The notes under the pieces were generated by a model. That model saw only the letters and a program-made list of their open reading frames with translations, searched no databases and was not told the origin of the DNA. Positions 1 through 11,700 of a DNA stretch of 64,000 nucleotides are shown one piece after another; position 1 is the first letter of the stretch; each line of letters begins with the position of its first letter. The position numbers and the translations under genes were made by a program. The DNA lies in NCBI RefSeq assembly GCF_054482525.1, contig NZ_CM137006.1. The stretch is one strand, 5' to 3'.

Positions 1-552
1 ACATTAAACACACAGGGGACCGCTCATTCTGGCGCTACTACTAGTTTGTGGGGTAACTCTACCCGTCCGGTTGTATATGAAGTTGGTGCTGATGGTGGCG
101 CGTATATGTTCTATGCGCAGAAAAATACCGATAACACCTATATGTTAAGCGTTAATGGTGCATGTCATGCCACCGCATTTAACCAGCATTCCGACCGGGA
201 TCTGAAAGACAACATTCAGGTGATCGATAATGCAACCGACCGCATCCGTAAAATGAACGGCTATACATACACGCTTAAAGAAAACGGTATGCCCTATGCA
301 GGTGTCATTGCACAGGAAGCTCTGGAAGCAATCCCAGAAGTTGTAGGTTCCGCAATGAAATATCAGGACGGTGCAAGCGGATCGGAAGGTGAAGAAGGTG
401 AACGTTATTACACAGTAGATTATTCTGGTGTTACTGGCTTGCTTGTTCAGGTAGCCAGAGAGTCAGACGACAGAATAACAGTACTGGAAGAAGAAAACGC
501 AGAATTAAGGCAAAGATTATCTGCAATTGAGGCGACGCTTGCGTCTAAATAA
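1..552 (+). CDS. Phage tail fibre/tailspike protein, C-terminal fragment with S74-type intramolecular chaperone domain; 5' end lies outside the window
   Basis: Frame is open from nt 1 (ORF track starts at TTG 46). Translation has an SDRDLKDNI motif (Ser-Lys dyad as in self-cleaving tail-fibre chaperone domains) followed by a C-terminal coiled-coil-like LEEENAELRQRLSAIEATL. Confidence 0.6.
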   Translation, partial: TLNTQGTAHSGATTSLWGNSTRPVVYEVGADGGAYMFYAQKNTDNTYMLSVNGACHATAFNQHSDRDLKDNIQVIDNATDRIRKMNGYTYTLKENGMPYAGVIAQEALEAIPEVVGSAMKYQDGASGSEGEEGERYYTVDYSGVTGLLVQVARESDDRITVLEEENAELRQRLSAIEATLASK

Positions 553-563
553 TATTAAGGGCT

Positions 564-881
564 ATGCGCCCCGTTTTATTGGGTAGGATGAAAATGGATA
601 TAACACCTTTTCTTCATGCGCTTTGTGCTGTGGCTGCGCAGGTACTGGTTGGTTTTTTTACCGGAAACTGGGCTTACGGGGCGATAGCCGGTTGTACATT
701 CTTCATTGCGCGGGAACACACCCAGGCAGAATATCGCTGGATTGAAATGTTCGGGCATGGCAAGCGGATTAACATGCCGTGGTGGGGCGGTTTTGATCCA
801 CGTGCATGGGATGTGGCAAGCCTGATGGATTTTGCTGTGCCGGTGGTGGCGTGTCTGCTGATCTGGATGTTGATCCGTTAA
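564..881 (+). CDS. Small hydrophobic membrane protein at the prophage end (possible moron); function unknown
   Basis: 105-aa ORF directly after the tail-fibre fragment with about three hydrophobic segments; alternative ATG starts at 588 and 594, the latter with an AGGA Shine-Dalgarno. No family recognised. Confidence 0.4.
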   Translation: MRPVLLGRMKMDITPFLHALCAVAAQVLVGFFTGNWAYGAIAGCTFFIAREHTQAEYRWIEMFGHGKRINMPWWGGFDPRAWDVASLMDFAVPVVACLLIWMLIR

Positions 882-1229
882 ATATAAAAAGTAAAAAGCC
901 GCAGTAACTTGTCATGATAGGATACTGCGGCTGGCTGGTTAACTTTCGATAGTGCGAGTATTGAATGATTTCCAGCCGTTACCGATTTTATATAACTGCA
1001 GTGGAATTATTCAACACACAGGCAAAACGGAATAAGCTGAGAAAAAAGCGTGCTTACCCAATCTGGGGTAAATCACGTCTGAATGACACCTGAAAACAGG
1101 TGGTGGCCTCAAGAAGGCTTGGAATATTCTTCTTTAATGTTATGTAATTTATTGATTTTTCGTGTACGATTTTAAGACATTTATTCCAAGAAAAATTTTT
1201 AACTCTTTGATTTTTCGACTCTGTATCAT

Positions 1230-1291
1230 CGGTCTCGAAAACCGGAGTAGGGGCAACTCTACCGGGGGTTCAAATCCCCCTCTCTCCGCCA
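1230..1291 (+). repeat. 3' 61 nt of tRNA-Ser(CGA) (serU-like) without the 5' half; probable prophage attR core
   Basis: Sequence GGTCTCGAAAACCGGAGTAGGGGCAACTCTACCGGGGGTTCAAATCCCCCTCTCTCCGCCA matches the anticodon-loop to CCA end of a class II tRNA-Ser; upstream bases cannot form an acceptor or D arm. Confidence 0.6.
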
Positions 1292-1839
1292 CTTTATCAA
1301 TGACTTATCTCCCGACTTCCCGCCTTGCTTTTCCTAAACAGAACAATCGTAGAATATTCTTGAAGGGTTAGATCGTCACTGTTTTCTGTTCGATACTGTG
1401 ACATTCAGCACTTGATTCGCTATGGATCTGACAGGAAGGTCTCGAGCGAAAATCTGCAGTTATTCAGTCGTTTTCTTATCGGTCACCATTATTCTTTTAG
1501 ACATTGATCCTACGAAGCTGCCGCAAAGTTGGTGGTGGGAACTGAATTTGCGTAGAGAAGGGGTCAATAATTGAGCCAAAAAAGGAACGCGGCCGTCAGA
1601 TTAAAGCCGCGGGACAAAGTCCATAATTTCCAAGAGTTGTTGAATTTCCCAGCTTTTTTGAAAGCCTTTGTATCATACTAACAAGTAAAAAAGGTTTAAA
1701 TACCAAAATTAACCTATATTTCTGGTTAGCTTTACCATGACAGATGACTTGCTCCTGGAGACATTGGCGCAGCCAGTCTGTATTGGTGAGTTGTGTATTT
1801 ATTGTTCGCCGTTTTCTCAGTTTTTTTCTACAGACATAA

Positions 1840-1872
1840 TAAAAAAGACACGTCTCAAGCATGAGCGTGTCT
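1840..1872 (-). terminator. Rho-independent terminator downstream of zinT
   Basis: 7-bp stem AGACACG/CGTGTCT with an A-run on the plus strand (T-run on the minus strand) just 3' of the zinT stop. Confidence 0.45.
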
Positions 1873-1960
1873 GAGTTTGTCTTATTTATTTGTCTTGGTA
1901 AATTATTGTCGTTACTACCAGGCACTGTTCTGTTAAATAATTGAAGTCAGCGCAAAAAAA

Positions 1961-2611
1961 TCAATGAGACATCATTTCCTCGACCACTTCTTCGCTACTC
2001 AACTGATATGGATAATACGTTGGCCAGTTTTCCATTTCATTTAATAAAGATTGCTGTGAATCATTACCCATAAAAATGTGAAAATGAGATGATTTTCGTG
2101 GTGCAATTATATGATCGCTAAATTGTATATATTTAGGGGCTTTGCTTTTAGGATCTTTACATTCGAATAAGTAACGAACGCCTTTCTTGCCTGATTTATA
2201 GGTGAGTATTTTGTATCCATCGTAATCATATTTACAGGATGTTGTTTCATTATTTCTATGGAATTCAACAATGCCGTCCTCAATGCCAATCATCTCGATA
2301 TCTGTCACATAACCTTTGCGATAATAATCTTTAATTTCAGCAAATGTTTTAGTTTTATCTGCATCCGCTTTCTTCTGAAAGACGGGGTCAAGTTTGCCAC
2401 TTTGCAGTAAAGGATAAACGGATTGCCAGACTCCATCCCAGTCACTGAGCGTTCGGTTTTGTACATTGGCATCATCAAAAACACCATTAGCAGCTTTTTG
2501 TTCGACCTCTGTTAAGGGTTTGCCGTGTGAGTGATGACCATGCGAAAAGGCAGGAGCGCTAACAATAAAGACACCTAAAGCAACAGCCAGTTTATGAAGA
2601 CGAATCGCCAA
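1961..2611 (-). CDS. zinT: Zinc/cadmium-binding periplasmic protein ZinT
   Basis: 216-aa ORF with signal peptide and His-rich HGHHSHG motif; matches ZinT (YodA). Confidence 0.93.
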
Positions 2612-2642
2612 AACAGTTTCCTCCAGAGTTAATGTATATGAT

Positions 2643-2666
2643 GTGTAATGTTATATTGTAACACAT
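2643..2666 (-). promoter_or_regulatory. Putative Zur box in the zinT promoter
   Basis: AT-rich near-palindrome TGTAATGTTATATTGTAACACA about 35 bp upstream of the zinT start; zinT is a known Zur target. Confidence 0.35.
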
Positions 2667-2819
2667 AAAAAAATGCAACAACTCTTAGGAGACAAGAGAA
2701 TAGTTCTCTCAGGTGTGCTTATCTATCTTATTGAAATAAAATAAATTATGTCGATGATTTGAGGTTGATGACAAACGAAACATAACCTAATGCGATCTGT
2801 GTATGCCGGATAAGGCGCT

Positions 2820-3574
<755 letters not shown>

Positions 3575-3678
3575 ATCAGCATACTTGTCCTTAGCCTTCT
3601 GCAGTGACAGCTGGTAGTACAGCGTGCTTCTGGCCAGCCCTGCAGCCTTTAACAGGTCAGACTGGCAGTGTCCGCACC

Positions 3679-4209
3679 TCAGGCTCCGGATGACTTTCGT
3701 TTTTTCTCCAGCTCCTGGCGCTTTTTTTCCAGGAGATGCTCCTGCATGGCTTTCAGATATGCATTTTCTGCGCGAAGATAACGCAGCTCATTCTTCATCT
3801 CTTCCGGCGTCATGTTTGCCTCGTTTTCATGGGTATCATCAGAACGGGTCATGCTTTTCTCCTTCCTGCGCCTGATAAAGGCCTCATTACCAGATTTGCG
3901 GTAGCCTTTTATCCAGTTTTTAACCGTGTTGTGGCTGGGAATGTTAAACCGGGCAGCTACCCGGGGTAGAGACTCAGAATGCCCGAGAGCATAAAGAACC
4001 ACGCAAAGTTTATCTTCAGGAGAATAGCTACGCTTGTGTCTGCAATCCAGTGCCCGAGGACCGTGAAGAAGAAAAAGATTAATCCAGTGTGAGAGGCTGG
4101 TGTGAGAAAGTTGAAAGAGTTTTGCCGTAGAAATGATGCCTGCATGACCAGCCAGGTAATGATTTACAGCGGCAAGTTTTACTTCAAATGAATGTTTCAT
4201 AAACTGCAC
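3679..4209 (-). CDS. IS3-family transposase OrfA (helix-turn-helix DNA-binding subunit)
   Basis: 176-aa ORF with a basic, leucine-zipper-like C-terminus; slippery heptamer A AAA AAG at plus 3721-3728 in the 0 frame. Confidence 0.85.
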   Translation of the reverse strand: MQFMKHSFEVKLAAVNHYLAGHAGIISTAKLFQLSHTSLSHWINLFLLHGPRALDCRHKRSYSPEDKLCVVLYALGHSESLPRVAARFNIPSHNTVKNWIKGYRKSGNEAFIRRRKEKSMTRSDDTHENEANMTPEEMKNELRYLRAENAYLKAMQEHLLEKKRQELEKKRKSSGA

Positions 4210-4302
4210 CTTCAGATGTCAGATTATGTCCAACATTTGGGGTGCAGTTCAGCTCGCGCCGCATCCGGCAGGGATAACGCGTACTTTGTCGGCAATATGA
4301 AG

Positions 4303-4938
4303 TTATAGAGATAATTTGTTGTGAACCTGCTTGCGTAACCGGTTGAAAAGGGAAAGCAACTTCTTATACCGTAAGGCTAAAAGCAGTACCGCCAGCCCAG
4401 CGTAGATGAGTGGCTGCGGTGAAATAATCTTCACTGACCACAGATAATGTATTGGGGCCAGGATCACGACAAGATAGACGAAGTTATGCAACTGTTGCCA
4501 GTGTTTGCCGAGTTTTCGCTGCATCGCCTGGGTTGAAGTGAACGCTAAAGCAAGCAAAATAACCCAGCTGATAATTCCTAACGTTAAATAAGGCCGGGTA
4601 ATTAACTCCTTGCCTAATAACGCCAGATTATTCACGCCCAGCTCCAGTAATGCGTAACTGGTTAAATGCAGTGTCGCCCAGGCAAAGCACCATAAGCCTA
4701 ACAGGCGGCGAGTGCGTATCAATAACGGCTGTTTTGCGTAGCGTGCCAGAGGTGTGATTAACAAGGCCGCCAGCAAAAATTTCAGTGCAGTGCGACCAGT
4801 AAAATGCTGAATATCTTTCACCGGATCGGCACCCAATCCACCGTGATTAATCGCCCAGACCAGCCAGAGAAACGGCAACAATCCGGCAAGATGCAGGCAA
4901 ACTTTCAGCCATGTCACCTGTTTTGCTGTCAGACGCAT
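4303..4938 (-). CDS. msrQ: Methionine sulfoxide reductase haem-binding membrane subunit MsrQ
   Basis: 211-aa polytopic membrane ORF matching MsrQ (YedZ); translationally coupled to msrP. Confidence 0.93.
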
Positions 4939-5949
<1,011 letters not shown>

Positions 5950-6051
5950 TCACACTTTTTTGTCTTTAGCCAGCAAGAGCCGTTTACTGTTAATCTGTCA
6001 GGGAGTGTCCTCCCTAACAGTAGCAGAGATCTGCTTTTACATATTTATGCA

Positions 6052-6465
6052 TTAACTGCCACGATAGGTTGAATACCCATATTGGCTAAGTAATAAAGGC
6101 ACATGATAATGCTCGTTCACTTTATTAATATGAAATTCAACGGGGATCTCAGGGAAGAGACTTTCAAGATTTTGTTTCTTGAAATAGTCCCCGGTTTTAA
6201 ATACGACACGGTAATCGCCCGTAGTTGCAGTTTGCTCGGGCCACAGTGCCTTAATTCGTCCATCCTTATCTGTTTTGGCGGTATTAAGTTGTAACCAGCC
6301 GTTATCCGCTTTCTTTTCAAGAGTGACTGTCACGTCGGCAGCGGGTTTTCCTGTTTGCTGGTTCAAAATATGCACGCTAAGAATGTTTTGTTGTGCAGCA
6401 TAGACCAAAGAAGGTAATGAAAATGCAGCCGTTACTACGGAGAGTACTAAATAACGCTTTAACAT
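6052..6465 (-). CDS. hiuH: 5-hydroxyisourate hydrolase (transthyretin-like periplasmic protein)
   Basis: 137-aa ORF with signal peptide and C-terminal YRGS signature. Confidence 0.92.
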
Positions 6466-6534
6466 GTTTATATCCTTGTCATGTGAATGAGTTTTGAGGA
6501 TAGCGAAAAAGCGTCCAGGGTAACCTTACAGAAG

Positions 6535-6552
6535 CATTACAATTTTGTAATG
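6535..6552. promoter_or_regulatory. HprR/CusR-type response-regulator box in the hiuH-hprR divergent intergenic region
   Basis: Palindrome CATTACAATTTTGTAATG between hiuH and hprR. Confidence 0.5.
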
Positions 6553-6597
6553 AACCAGGCTGTTTCTATAACATATGATTTATGGCATATTATTTTC

Positions 6598-7269
6598 ATG
6601 AAGATTCTACTTATTGAAGATAATCAAAGGACCCAGGAATGGGTAACGCAGGGGCTTTCAGAAGCGGGTTATGTCATTGATGCCGTTACTGATGGCAGAG
6701 ACGGGCTTTATCTTGCGCTGAAGGATGATTATGCATTGATCATTCTGGATATTATGCTTCCGGGTATGGATGGCTGGCAGATCTTACAAACGTTAAGAAC
6801 GGCAAAGCAAACTCCTGTTATTTGCCTTACTGCAAGAGATTCTGTCGATGACAGAGTCAGAGGGCTGGACAGTGGGGCAAATGATTATCTGGTAAAACCT
6901 TTTTCATTTTCTGAGTTGCTGGCAAGGGTTCGGGCACAATTAAGGCAACATTACGCTTTGAATTCAACATTAGAAATCAGCGGCTTAAGAATGGACTCTG
7001 TTAGTCAAAGTGTGAGCAGGGACAATATCAGTATTACACTGACGCGCAAGGAGTTTCAGTTACTTTGGCTACTGGCCTCCAGAGCTGGCGAAATTATACC
7101 CAGAACGGTTATTGCGAGTGAAATTTGGGGAATCAACTTTGATAGTGATACCAATACGGTGGATGTCGCCATTCGCAGGCTCCGCGCAAAAGTTGATGAT
7201 CCTTTTCCTGAAAAGCTAATCGCCACAATCCGGGGGATGGGCTATTCATTCGTAGCGGTAAAAAAATAA
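6598..7269 (+). CDS. hprR: OmpR-family response regulator HprR
   Basis: Receiver domain (MKILLIEDN...D...) plus winged-helix output domain; start taken at the internal ATG giving 223 aa (ORF track begins at 6487). Confidence 0.9.
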   Translation: MKILLIEDNQRTQEWVTQGLSEAGYVIDAVTDGRDGLYLALKDDYALIILDIMLPGMDGWQILQTLRTAKQTPVICLTARDSVDDRVRGLDSGANDYLVKPFSFSELLARVRAQLRQHYALNSTLEISGLRMDSVSQSVSRDNISITLTRKEFQLLWLLASRAGEIIPRTVIASEIWGINFDSDTNTVDVAIRRLRAKVDDPFPEKLIATIRGMGYSFVAVKK

Positions 7270-8627
7270 TGAAAAGATTATCTATAACCGTCCGTTTAAC
7301 CTTGCTTTTTATATTGCTGCTGTCTGTTGCTGGCGCTGGAATTGTATGGACTCTCTATAATGGCCTGGCAAGTGAGTTGAAATGGCGCGATGATACAACA
7401 CTCATTAACCGGACAGCGCAGATCAAGCAGTTGTTAATTGATGGGGTAAATCCAGATACGTTACCTGTGTACTTTAACCGGATGATGGATGTTAGTCAGG
7501 ATATCTTGATCATTCATGGTGATAGCATCAACAAAATTGTTAACCGGACGAATGTCAGTGATGACATGTTAAATAACATACCTGCTACTGAGACAATCAG
7601 CGCAGCTGGCATTTACAGAAGCATTATTAATGATACAGAGATAGATGCTTTACGAATTAATATTGATGAAGTTTCGCCATCATTAACGGTTACTGTGGCT
7701 AAATTGGCTTCAGCCAGACATAACATGCTTGAACAGTATAAAATTAATAGCATTATAATTTGCATTGTCGCCATTATACTTTGCTCAGTATTAAGTCCGT
7801 TGTTAATCAGAACGGGGTTACGAGAGATCAAAAAGTTGAGTGGTGTAACGGAAGCGCTGAATTATAACGATAACCGGGAGCCTGTTGAGGTTAGCGCATT
7901 ACCGAGAGAACTAAAACCTCTTGGGCAGGCGTTGAATAAAATGCACCAAGCCTTAGTCAAAGATTTTGAACGCCTAAGTCAATTTGCTGACGATCTCGCT
8001 CATGAACTTAGAACACCAATTAATGCATTACTGGGTCAGAATCAGGTTACGCTCAGTCAAACCAGAAGTATCGCTGAATATCAAAAAACAATTGCCGGAA
8101 ACATTGAAGAGCTGGAAAATATTTCGCGGTTAACAGAGAACATACTGTTTCTTGCCAGGGCAGATAAAAACAATGTTTTGGTGAAACTGGATTCGCTTTC
8201 TCTCAATAAGGAAGTCGAAAATTTGTTGGACTATCTTGAATACCTTTCAGACGAGAAAGAGATTTACTTTAAGGTCGAGTGCAATCAGCAAATTTTTGCG
8301 GATAAAATTTTACTGCAACGAATGTTATCGAATCTTATTGTTAACGCTATTCGATATTCACCAGAAAAATCGCGCATTCAGATAACCAGTTTTCTTGATA
8401 CCAACGGTTCTCTTAATATTGATATCGCCAGTCCTGGAACGAAAATTCATGAGCCTGAAAAACTCTTCCGTAGATTTTGGCGGGGAGATAATTCGCGTCA
8501 TTCCGTAGGTCAGGGACTTGGTCTTTCTTTAGTCAAAGCGATTGCCGAATTGCATGGGGGAAGTGCTACGTATCACTATCTCAATAAGCATAATGTGTTC
8601 CGGATTACGTTACCGCAAAGAAATTAA
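7269..8627 (+). CDS. hprS: Sensor histidine kinase HprS
   Basis: 452-aa ORF with two transmembrane segments, H-box (LAHELRTPIN) and ATPase motifs; start overlaps the hprR stop. Confidence 0.92.
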   Translation: MKRLSITVRLTLLFILLLSVAGAGIVWTLYNGLASELKWRDDTTLINRTAQIKQLLIDGVNPDTLPVYFNRMMDVSQDILIIHGDSINKIVNRTNVSDDMLNNIPATETISAAGIYRSIINDTEIDALRINIDEVSPSLTVTVAKLASARHNMLEQYKINSIIICIVAIILCSVLSPLLIRTGLREIKKLSGVTEALNYNDNREPVEVSALPRELKPLGQALNKMHQALVKDFERLSQFADDLAHELRTPINALLGQNQVTLSQTRSIAEYQKTIAGNIEELENISRLTENILFLARADKNNVLVKLDSLSLNKEVENLLDYLEYLSDEKEIYFKVECNQQIFADKILLQRMLSNLIVNAIRYSPEKSRIQITSFLDTNGSLNIDIASPGTKIHEPEKLFRRFWRGDNSRHSVGQGLGLSLVKAIAELHGGSATYHYLNKHNVFRITLPQRN

Positions 8628-8660
8628 CATAGGGCTTCAGTACGCCATAAATTAACCGTG

Positions 8661-8698
8661 AAAAACGCAGCCACGTCGTGAGTACTAACGCGGCTGCG
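8661..8698 (-). terminator. Hairpin between the convergent hprS and hchA genes (likely hchA terminator)
   Basis: Stem CGCAGCC/GGCTGCG with a minus-strand T-run. Confidence 0.35.
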
Positions 8699-8733
8699 AT
8701 TGATTATGTGCTTACATTCAAACGTAACAGGGA

Positions 8734-9585
8734 TTAACCCGCGTAAGCTGCCAGCATTTCCTGCGCCGCCAGTTTACCCAACGCATTCGCTGCGAAAGGA
8801 CTGTCGCCGGTGAGAACTTTACGGTCCTTATGTACTCGCCCGGTGATGTCGTCATTAATAATGTTCATGCCCATTTTCTTCAGCTCTTCGCCGAAGTACC
8901 AGGTGAGATGACCCGGCATATAGCCTATCTCTGGCGTTTGTTTGTCTGCGGCGTCTGGGAATGCGCAAATGGAATAACCATTCAGTGGGTTATCGCCGTG
9001 GCGAAGCGCCAGAAATGCCGCCGGGCCGTGGCAAAGGGAGATAACAAAACGGTCATTTTTGATTGCCCACTGTAAAGCGGCAGCCACGTTCTGGCTTTCT
9101 GGTAAACCAATAAGTGCGCCATGACCACCAGGAACAAAGATTGCTGCATATTCGCTGTCAGCGTTGAGGCTGGCGACAACATCCGCGAGTTTCTTCGGAT
9201 TGCGGAACAACGATTTATGCTGCTCAAAGAATGGCATTACTTTTTCATCTTTGTGCGGCATAGCCCAGTATTCAAACTTGGTCATCAGACCGGAAATGGT
9301 CGCCACTTCGAATTCGAAACCTGCAGCGTGGAGATGATACAACGGCAGCAACGTTTCAATCGGATGGTTACCGGTCGAGAACAGTTTTCCGTTATCGGTC
9401 GGCAAATAACGTTCGTCCGCGGCGATCACCAGAATTTTATGTTTACCGCGATACGGTTTTGGATAGTCCACGCCATCAAGATCAGAGACAGGACTGGTAT
9501 ATTGGCTAAGCGAATATTCTGAAGGGAAGAATGCATTATCTTCAGCAATATCGACCTGCGGATTTTTACTTGTTTGAACAGTCAT
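8734..9585 (-). CDS. hchA: Hsp31 chaperone / glyoxalase III (DJ-1/PfpI family)
   Basis: 283-aa ORF matching HchA. Confidence 0.95.
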   Translation of the reverse strand: MTVQTSKNPQVDIAEDNAFFPSEYSLSQYTSPVSDLDGVDYPKPYRGKHKILVIAADERYLPTDNGKLFSTGNHPIETLLPLYHLHAAGFEFEVATISGLMTKFEYWAMPHKDEKVMPFFEQHKSLFRNPKKLADVVASLNADSEYAAIFVPGGHGALIGLPESQNVAAALQWAIKNDRFVISLCHGPAAFLALRHGDNPLNGYSICAFPDAADKQTPEIGYMPGHLTWYFGEELKKMGMNIINDDITGRVHKDRKVLTGDSPFAANALGKLAAQEMLAAYAG

Positions 9586-10096: not shown

Positions 10097-10134
10097 TAAA
10101 AAAGCCTGAGTTCGATGAGGGACGAACTCAGGCT
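10097..10134 (-). terminator. Rho-independent terminator downstream of yedS
   Basis: 11-bp stem GCCTGAGTTCG/CGAACTCAGGC followed on the minus strand by TTTTTTATT. Confidence 0.5.
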
Positions 10135-10176: not shown

Positions 10177-11292
10177 TTAGAACTGGTAGACGATACCAAC
10201 TGCAAACTGGTCATCAGCTGCTGCGCCAGTAATGGCGGCGTCATCTTTATCCAGCATGTTGAATTTGTATGCAGTATAAACGTTCATGTTCTTATTGAAG
10301 TAGTACCAGGTACCAACTTCAATGTAGTTCACACGGTCAGCGTCAACATATCTATGTCCAGGTACACCTTTGATATCTTTACCTTTAGAATACACATAAC
10401 CTAAGGACGGACGCAGACCAAAGTCGAATTGATACTGAACAACCGCTTCAAAGTTCTGGGTTTCATTGATAAGTTGATCACGCATTATTGTATTGCCTTC
10501 TCGATCGGCAACACCTGTATCAATAGAACTCGGAGTCATATTACGAGTTTCACCGTACATTACAGCTGCGTAGACATTGTTCGCGTCATACTTTGCAGCC
10601 AATGACCACAGTTCAGCATTTGAACCGTTTCCATCGGCAACTTGATCGTTGGTGCGATCAGATTTGCTATATGCACCAACGATACCAAAACCATTGATGT
10701 TATAGTCTACAGACAACGCATAGCCGTCACCATTTTGTTTCTTAGTGCTACGGTTGCTGTTTTTGCCTTGGTACTGAATCGCAAAATCAAGACCATCAAC
10801 CAGACCAAAGAAATCAGAGTTACGGTAGGTTGCAACACCGTTGGTACGACCGTTCATGAAGTTGTCAGCGGACGCCCAGGAATCACCACCCCATTCAACT
10901 AACATATCGGTATAAGCTGCGGCATCATAAGCAACACCGTAGTTACGACCATAGTCGAAAGATCCTAACTCGTTATATTTCAAACCTGCGAAGGTTAAAC
11001 GGGTTTTTTCCTGATTAGAGCCTTCGGGCTTGCTGGCGTCGAGGTTGTATTCAAACTGACCAAAACCAGTCAGTTCGCTGGTGATTTGGGTTTCACCTTT
11101 AACACCGAAACGAGCATAGGAGGTATCTTCGTTTTCGCTGTTATTATCATCAGTATTTGACCAGATGCGTTCGCCAACCATCTTGCCGTAGAAATCAACT
11201 TTATTGCCATCTTTATTATAAATTTCAGCCGCATTTGCTGCGCCAGCAACTAATAACGCCGGGACCAGCATTGCCAGAACTTTTCTTTTCAT
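10177..11292 (-). CDS. yedS: Outer-membrane general porin of the OmpC/OmpF family (YedS), apparently intact
   Basis: Signal peptide [21 protein letters not shown], porin-like beta-barrel sequence, C-terminal ...VGIVYQF; start chosen at the ATG with an AAGGGA Shine-Dalgarno (ORF track begins at 11322). Confidence 0.85.
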
Positions 11293-11602
11293 TATGTATT
11301 CCCTTGTGATTATAATCTTCATGAATATATCAATAAGTGCTGTTATCCAAAAAAAAGCACATTTGGATACTATTCTATGAAGTTCATTTTATTTTAAAGA
11401 TTACATGTAACAAATGTATTTAAAAGATTTCAAAATGTTTCCAATCTATTTAATATAATTCAGAATTATGAATTCTAAATATAAGCATTCATGAAAATTA
11501 TAAATACATATCAATATGTTATGAGTTGAGCGGAAATATAGGGGGTATCAATGATTGTTGCGCCAAACGGCTGGTGTGATCACGCGCACATTAATGAAGA
11601 CA

Positions 11603-11700
11603 TAAAAAAAGCCGGCATCATGCCGGCCCAAAAAATATAAACAAGACGATAAAAGGCTAATAACGGAAGCATCATGACACAGAATAATAAAAAGGGATAA
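11603..11700 (-). ncRNA. rseX: Candidate small RNA upstream of yedS (position expected for RseX); 5' end not determined
   Basis: Minus-strand terminator (hairpin GCCGGCATGATGCCGGC plus T-run, plus 11604-11627) in the yedR-yedS intergenic region; RseX is known from this position in K-12. Confidence 0.3.

Follow-up and report, generated by a model that had tools for sequence, protein, structure and literature searches.

An intact general porin of a family divergent from K-12 YedS, with putatively quiescent regulation, at the yedS site of Escherichia coli PCN033

An intact general porin at the yedS site

The stretch of DNA analysed in this work (64,000 nucleotides, hereafter the window) contained, at positions 10177-11292 of the minus strand, an intact and selectively maintained general-diffusion porin gene of the OmpF/OmpC/PhoE family, located at the chromosomal site at which Escherichia coli K-12 carries the pseudogene yedS. 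The window belongs to the chromosome of E. coli PCN033 (NZ_CP006632.1), with 100% identity over this interval. PCN033 is a phylogroup D strain that causes extraintestinal disease in pigs (PMC4578781), and its RefSeq annotation already labels the product “porin” (WP_000824360.1). The gene is an ordinary general porin, already annotated, and its site usually carries an intact porin. The explanation that we consider likely as a whole is that of an intact porin of one of the families found at the yedS site (“family A”, see below), which would form an open channel and whose regulation would be quiescent.

The coding sequence was a single open frame (ATG at 11292-11290, TAA at 10179-10177) of 371 codons plus the stop codon, with no internal stops. 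The first-pass annotation had proposed a continuous porin frame at the position of yedS, and neither a frameshift nor a premature stop was found in it. An alternative, longer frame starts at an in-frame ATG upstream (11322); the start at 11292 was preferred because a Shine-Dalgarno sequence (AAGGGA, 11300-11305 of the minus strand, 7 nucleotides 5' of the ATG, read from the sequence and kept across genera) precedes it, and because all the homologs open with MKRKVL. The signal peptide, delimited by alignment, comprised codons 1-21 (11230-11292, minus strand) with cleavage before AEIYNK; the cleavage context (ANA followed by AE, read from the alignment) was the same in OmpC and OmpF. The protein ended in GIVYQF, i.e. 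in a terminal phenylalanine. The signal peptide and the C-terminal aromatic residue expected from the first reading were thus both present, as was the AT-rich upstream region: GC content was 0.22 at 11300-11499, 0.29-0.38 up to approximately 11900, and 0.41-0.47 within the porin gene.

The translated protein matched the Pfam family Porin_1 (PF00267) with 399 bits (cut-off of 23.7) over residues 27-371, covering positions 1-337 of the 337 in the profile. The best sequence match in the PDB was OmpK35 of Klebsiella pneumoniae (490 bits), followed by Enterobacter Omp35/PhoE, and then by OmpF and OmpC. An AlphaFold2 model (monomer only, 47 homologs) had a mean predicted local distance difference test score of 80.8 and a predicted template modelling (TM) score of 0.79; its 17 modelled strand segments correspond to 16 strands, the terminal strand being split. 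The top Foldseek match of the model was also OmpK35 (5o77, target-normalised TM score of 0.95), with approximately 0.91 for OmpF and a range of 0.90-0.95 for the OmpK35/OmpF structures. All the constriction residues were conserved (OmpF numbering): the basic ladder K16, R42, R82 and R132, and the acidic residues D113 and E117 on loop L3. The L3 motif was VEWGGD, as in OmpK35, and not PEFGGD, and the L2 latching residue E71 and the terminal phenylalanine were both present in the alignment. PCN033-type alleles also harbored 14 more residues in loop L6 than their nearest relatives. The protein should form an OmpK35/OmpF-like trimeric channel of 16 strands, permeable to small hydrophilic solutes including beta-lactams.

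OmpK35 is thus the closest solved structure, and shares the L3 motif, the basic ladder and the acidic pair with the PCN033 porin. Identities were nevertheless limited (66% to OmpK35, 60% to OmpF), and OmpK35 is located at the asnS-aspC locus, that is, the ompF site, at which E. coli carries its own ompF; the resemblance is therefore one of type and not of orthology. Scores for the NCBIfam models were likewise below their cut-offs: 454 vs. 583 for the OmpF equivalog (NF007446), whose asnS-ompF-aspC locus also differs, 418.9 vs. 484 for OmpC (NF007841), and 417 vs. 599 for PhoE.

Porin families at the site within E. coli

The drpB-rseX-[porin]-hchA site harbored at least three deeply divergent porin families, associated with one shared control region and one shared 5' end. 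Family A included the PCN033 type (371 amino acids, used as the reference) and the RM10466 type (357 amino acids in RM10466, 91% identical overall to the PCN033 type); family B, present in ABU 83972, Nissle 1917 and FDAARGOS_943, had 352 amino acids and 68% identity to the PCN033 type; family C, or K-12 type, present in NCTC9699, UID2309220033, S42 and others, had 395-405 amino acids and 60-61% identity. Frequencies were obtained for 5,426 complete E. coli genomes from megablast counts (coverage of at least 80% taken as full-length) and from evenly spaced samples of the ranking. Full-length matches numbered 1,626 for family A, 1,662 for family C, and 1,865 for family B together with the RM10466 type. 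The corresponding estimates were 900-1,000 genomes for the PCN033 type, approximately 700 for the RM10466 type, 1,000-1,200 for family B and approximately 1,660 for family C, the rest of the 5,426 having no match or a partial match only. Each porin family was full-length in roughly 17-31% of the genomes, and the hosts of the PCN033-like allele included pigs, primates, humans and chickens. Most of the sampled genomes had an intact porin of some family at this site; PCN033 therefore shows the usual state of E. coli and not a peculiarity of its own.

The upstream 700 nucleotides, comprising rseX and the whole control region, were 90-100% identical among families in nearly every 50-nucleotide window. 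The same was mostly true for the DNA 3' of the stop codon and for the signal-peptide codons, which fall inside a 5' coding stretch of approximately 95 nucleotides that was nearly identical in all the allele families. The RM10466 allele (positions 2001-3074 of locus L003) had the same DNA sequence as the PCN033 allele up to nucleotide ~485 and 24-94% identity thereafter; it is an intragenic mosaic (a recombinant) within family A.

Maintenance and loss of the porin gene

The strongest of the competing explanations is that the gene, in spite of its open frame, is a cryptic relic which is never expressed and drifts neutrally toward a pseudogene, as in K-12. The AT-rich and probably H-NS-silenced control region would fit such a relic, as would the lesions that arose independently in several lineages. 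K-12 yedS, which is indeed a pseudogene as the first-pass annotation held, carried a CAG to TAG change at codon 162 and a 1-nucleotide deletion at nucleotide 663 (both with respect to NCTC9699); the O157:H7 gene had a 1-nucleotide deletion at nucleotide 608, the TUM13936 gene a TAG at codon 313, the 17-07187 gene a frameshift and a transposase fragment, and the Z1322HEC0010 gene an IS110 insertion, while in Z1323CEC0017 the lesion was a deletion by which hchA was also lost. Among 12 evenly spaced genomes sampled for family C, six had an intact gene; the six with a disrupted gene included three laboratory derivatives of K-12.

Against the relic explanation, the ratio of nonsynonymous to synonymous divergence (dN/dS) was 0.08-0.20 within and between intact alleles, and all the pore-lining residues were conserved. 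Within E. coli, alleles belonging to a single family had a synonymous divergence (dS) of 0.39-0.49, far above the usual within-species level; together with the low dN/dS, this indicates that the allele lineages are old and have been kept functional. Six of seven further sampled PCN033-like matches were ungapped and full-length, with approximately 98% identity, and one was frameshifted. Orthologs were kept at the same site across four genera, and the translation-initiation region and the predicted RybB site (see below) were conserved at synonymous positions. In addition, a porin described as having “50% homology” to K-12 YedS was reported in surface extracts of O26:H11 Shiga toxin-producing E. 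coli (PMC9731836), which may hint at expression of a family other than the K-12 type. Taken with these data, a neutrally drifting relic appears rather improbable, and an intact, selectively maintained porin is preferred.

Relatives in other genera and origin

Family A had relatives outside E. coli with 85% (E. fergusonii), 78% (Citrobacter), 77% (Enterobacter hormaechei) and 73% (K. oxytoca) identity to the PCN033 porin, all at a syntenic site (yedI-yedA-vsr-dcm-yedJ-(drpB)-porin). Family A is the positional ortholog of the porin beside yedJ/drpB in these four groups. A yedJ-anchored scan of species revealed intact family C genes in E. albertii, E. whittamii and three other species-level genomes of Escherichia, family B in one more genome named E. 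coli, and no Salmonella among the genomes returned. Family A may have been the ancestral occupant of the site, and the K-12 lineage would then have replaced the barrel-coding part.

We also considered whether an ompF/ompK35-type porin had recently been acquired by horizontal transfer from Klebsiella, Enterobacter or Citrobacter, as the best match among solved structures was Klebsiella OmpK35 and the closest relatives outside Escherichia were Citrobacter/Enterobacter porins (75-78% identity). The nearest relatives, however, were other E. coli alleles (90-99%) and the E. fergusonii gene, and dS with respect to Citrobacter/Enterobacter was 1.5-1.7, so the split is not recent. The PCN033-like allele was moreover widespread, in the numbers of complete genomes and the several hosts given above; no mobile-element genes flanked the porin, and the flanks were ordinary E. 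coli DNA; OmpK35 lies at a different locus, and neither a copy with more than 95% identity in another genus nor mobile-element scars at the junctions were seen. A recent import is, in our opinion, very unlikely.

Other observations concerned the surroundings of these genes. In E. fergusonii (L016, 5663-6772 and 7231-8688) the family A porin was followed by a second porin of 369 amino acids (signal peptide MKKLTVAVSAVAASILMAMSAQA), a TrkH-family gene and hchA. This second porin was examined as a source of the other families and was rejected: it is unrelated, has a different signal peptide and was 54-65% identical to all the others. In Citrobacter (L019) and K. oxytoca (L052), an mtfA-like gene (Peptidase_M90) directly followed the porin. 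In E. coli (window ~311-9585), hchA-hprSR-hiuH-msrPQ-(IS1397)-zinT lay between the porin and mtfA, and this block looks like an Escherichia-specific insertion.

Relation to K-12 yedS

The PCN033 gene and K-12 yedS shared the same site (between rseX/drpB and hchA), and K-12-type YedS (b4496, a pseudogene in K-12 and intact in some strains) also had rseX upstream, an identical signal peptide and a Porin_1 domain. The first-pass annotation had taken the gene for yedS intact in this strain. An intact porin was indeed present at the yedS site, but it did not belong to the K-12 yedS lineage: alignment of the two DNA sequences gave high identity in the first ~95 nucleotides (92-100%) and the last ~20 only, with 30-80% identity and many indels between them (nucleotides 95-1112), which is not the profile of an undisrupted K-12 gene.

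The differences were equally clear in the protein. The 60-61% amino acid identity to the intact K-12-type proteins of NCTC9699, UID2309220033 and S42 may be compared with the 64.7% between OmpF and OmpC. The divergence was not confined to loops (60% identity in the predicted strands, 36% in the external loops); loops L4, L5 and L7 were much shorter in the PCN033 porin (371 vs. 395-405 amino acids), and L3 carried VEWGGD vs. PEFGGD in the K-12 type. The intact K-12-type relatives were 83-94% identical to each other, and the NCTC9699 allele had 94.5% DNA identity to K-12 yedS. The NCBI annotation pipeline PGAP names K-12-type alleles “porin OmpC”, and the PCN033 gene only “porin”. The explanation that this gene is K-12 yedS itself, in a strain which never gained or has reverted the stop codon and the frameshift, agrees with the shared position, the identical signal peptide and the near-identical control region and first ~95 nucleotides, but is refuted as stated, and is hardly credible, given the protein identity (strands included), the divergence of the remaining coding sequence, the different PGAP names, and the existence of true intact K-12-type versions of 395-405 amino acids such as that of NCTC9699.

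Small RNA pairing at the porin mRNA

The strongest regulatory signal of the porin gene is probably post-transcriptional: a predicted site for the 5' 16 nucleotides of the sigma-E-dependent small RNA RybB at 11272-11289 of the minus strand (coding positions +4 to +21, codons 2-7). In silico, the duplex reached -17.2 kcal/mol (z of -4.2), a value attained by 1 of 300 shuffles; when intramolecular structure was counted, the cofold gain was -21.5 kcal/mol (0 of 40 shuffles), equal to that of the MicF-ompF control. The site was common to all the allele families and was kept in the three genera Escherichia, Citrobacter and Enterobacter. Escherichia and Enterobacter had the Shine-Dalgarno sequence and coding nucleotides 1-21 in common, and Citrobacter differed by one synonymous change (GTT to GTA), whereas the codons that follow varied between genera. 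The same scan recovered GCAGUGGC-containing sites in the 5' untranslated regions (UTRs) of ompC and ompF, which we take to be the known RybB sites, and a site at the same place in ompN, where a 16-bp RybB duplex in the 5' coding region has been described (PMC1804206).

The predicted site fits two published observations: “yedS (ompS1)”, the name under which yedS is listed and equated with Salmonella OmpS1, decreased 2.5-fold on sigma-E induction in K-12 (PMC2731931), and Salmonella ompS is a RybB target (PMC1804206). None of the literature searched was found to list E. coli yedS among the targets of RybB. Under envelope stress, the porin mRNA would thus be repressed through RybB pairing at codons 2-7.

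Other small RNAs gave no comparable signal at the porin initiation region, the positive controls (MicF-ompF and MicC-ompC) being clearly positive in the pairing tests. MicC pairing (-13.9 kcal/mol) was no better than in shuffles. The terminator hairpin of RseX (11604-11632) was tried as a partner of porin mRNA positions +5 to +35 (11258-11288) and, although its raw energy was high (-30.7 kcal/mol, z of -5.6), it was rejected for two reasons: the cofold gain was only -13.9 kcal/mol (13 of 40 shuffles) once intramolecular structure was counted, and E. fergusonii has a different rseX terminator but the same target sequence. This complementarity is probably a coincidence. The 5' UTR of the porin mRNA showed no structural signal (z of +0.55), and whole-molecule duplexfold on sequences of 90-160 nucleotides was uninformative.

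rseX and the control region

The small RNA gene rseX was located at 11604-11693 of the minus strand (terminator at 11609-11629; 97.7 bits for Rfam RF01401 vs. a gathering score of 50), in the same orientation as the porin and 311 nucleotides 5' of its ATG; the PCN033 RefSeq annotation has no non-coding RNA row for it. In all the sampled Escherichia species, rseX was upstream of the porin irrespective of porin family; in the sampled Citrobacter and Enterobacter it was not detected. A porin beside an omp-regulating small RNA gene is an arrangement also seen for micC at ompN and micF at ompC, although rseX is in tandem with the PCN033 porin and not divergent, unlike in the quiescent porin/small RNA pairs compared.

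Three putative elements were recognized between rseX and the porin, all on the minus strand. A consensus scan gave a sigma-70-like promoter candidate at 11386-11413 (-35 TTGTTA at 11413-11408, a 16-nucleotide spacer, -10 TAAAAT at 11391-11386). Overlapping the predicted -35, an OmpR-like region at 11402-11442 contained the motif TGTWACAW (11405-11413) and A[A/T]AC repeats with a spacing of approximately 10 bp. TGTWACAW occurred at only five distinct sites in the window, and was the motif obtained for OmpR by chromatin immunoprecipitation and sequencing in S. Typhi, in which two copies lie upstream of ompS1 and OmpR binds ompS1 (PMC3586657). The 11-mer ACATTTTGAAA (11428-11438) was common to the C1 OmpR site of ompC. 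The third element, read from the sequence, was a CRP-like palindrome, TGTGCgcgtgaTCACA, at 11575-11590, just 3' of the rseX terminator and approximately 285-300 nucleotides 5' of the ATG. In K-12, the equivalent palindrome has differences in the spacer alone, and a Footprint-seq table (PMC12871828, a 2026 preprint) gives a CRP site there (2033766), assigned to yedS.

In K-12, H-NS with StpA silences rseX “and surrounding areas”, which rise in hns/stpA mutants (PMC8313858), and the control region was near-identical between PCN033 and K-12. Salmonella ompS1 is a quiescent porin gene that H-NS/StpA silence and LeuO de-represses (PMC4264507), and an AT-rich control region like that of the PCN033 porin is found in the quiescent porins OmpN/micC and Salmonella OmpS1/OmpS2. 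By analogy with K-12, transcription would start in an AT-rich region silenced by H-NS/StpA; it may require OmpR binding on or close to the -35, with modulation by CRP. Combined with RybB pairing, these controls would make the gene a quiescent porin and not a constitutively expressed additional one.

Several results weigh against this interpretation. The promoter candidate is weak alone, since such matches were no commoner in the region than in shuffles. The evidence for OmpR amounts to one 8-mer motif and one shared 11-mer, and a position weight matrix built from six known OmpR sites gave no strong match at 11402-11442, its best match in the window being on the opposite strand, in the presumed 5' UTR. 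Binding of H-NS was shown in K-12 alone, and there at rseX, not at the porin promoter. MicF did not pair convincingly with the porin initiation region (duplex of -11.2 kcal/mol, z of +0.4; cofold gain of -9.6 kcal/mol, 10 of 40 shuffles); MicF is said to regulate YedS, a claim attributed to work by Warner in 2013 that was neither supported nor excluded here. As for the maintenance of the gene, its sporadic and independent inactivation in other strains indicates that the porin is dispensable in some settings.

Significance of the porin polymorphism

Where its silencing is lifted, and only there, the PCN033 porin could be one more way in for beta-lactams and a receptor for phages or colicins. 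An effect on beta-lactam/carbapenem permeability, which the first-pass annotation had proposed, is plausible by analogy, given the OmpK35-like pore and the active YedS reported to be involved in the carbapenem resistance of a clinical isolate (Warner et al., 2013, as cited in PMC4048246 and PMC11267920). The name “yedS” in genomes other than K-12 covers at least three very different porins, one annotated in RefSeq as “porin OmpC” and the others as “porin”; most strains will therefore be placed in the wrong class by studies that score the gene as intact or disrupted with respect to K-12 yedS.

A broader reading, which we put forward tentatively and hold to be somewhat less probable than its contrary, is that the yedS site is an old multi-allelic “porin cassette”, in which one regulatory/5' module serves at least three barrels differing in approximately 40% of their residues. 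The conserved module may combine the rseX small RNA and a silenced, AT-rich promoter with the RybB site and the signal peptide; each barrel may be fairly frequent and maintained by purifying selection, two of them being shared with other Escherichia species or genera. The polymorphism may then persist because phages, colicins or host immunity exert frequency-dependent selection on a surface protein that is normally silent. No description of such a polymorphism at yedS was found in the literature searched. If true, this reading would provide a natural system for how a silent surface protein stays diverse, and would show one regulatory module (H-NS/OmpR/CRP/RybB) serving interchangeable channels.

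Neighboring features

An intrinsic-terminator-like hairpin (12-bp stem followed by a T run) was present at 10103-10134 of the minus strand, 43 nucleotides 3' of the porin stop codon. Upstream of rseX, the small cell-division gene drpB (yedR) was annotated as disrupted or split in several strains, among them FDAARGOS_943 (internal stop), O157:H7 F8797 (frameshift) and NCTC9699 (two fragments). An IS1397 transposase of the IS3 family, with a programmed frameshift, was located between msrQ and zinT in PCN033 (window 2852-4200). In the flagellar region, a gene encoding a leucine-rich-repeat protein and an integrase fragment were found between yedL and fliE (window ~32660-34130).

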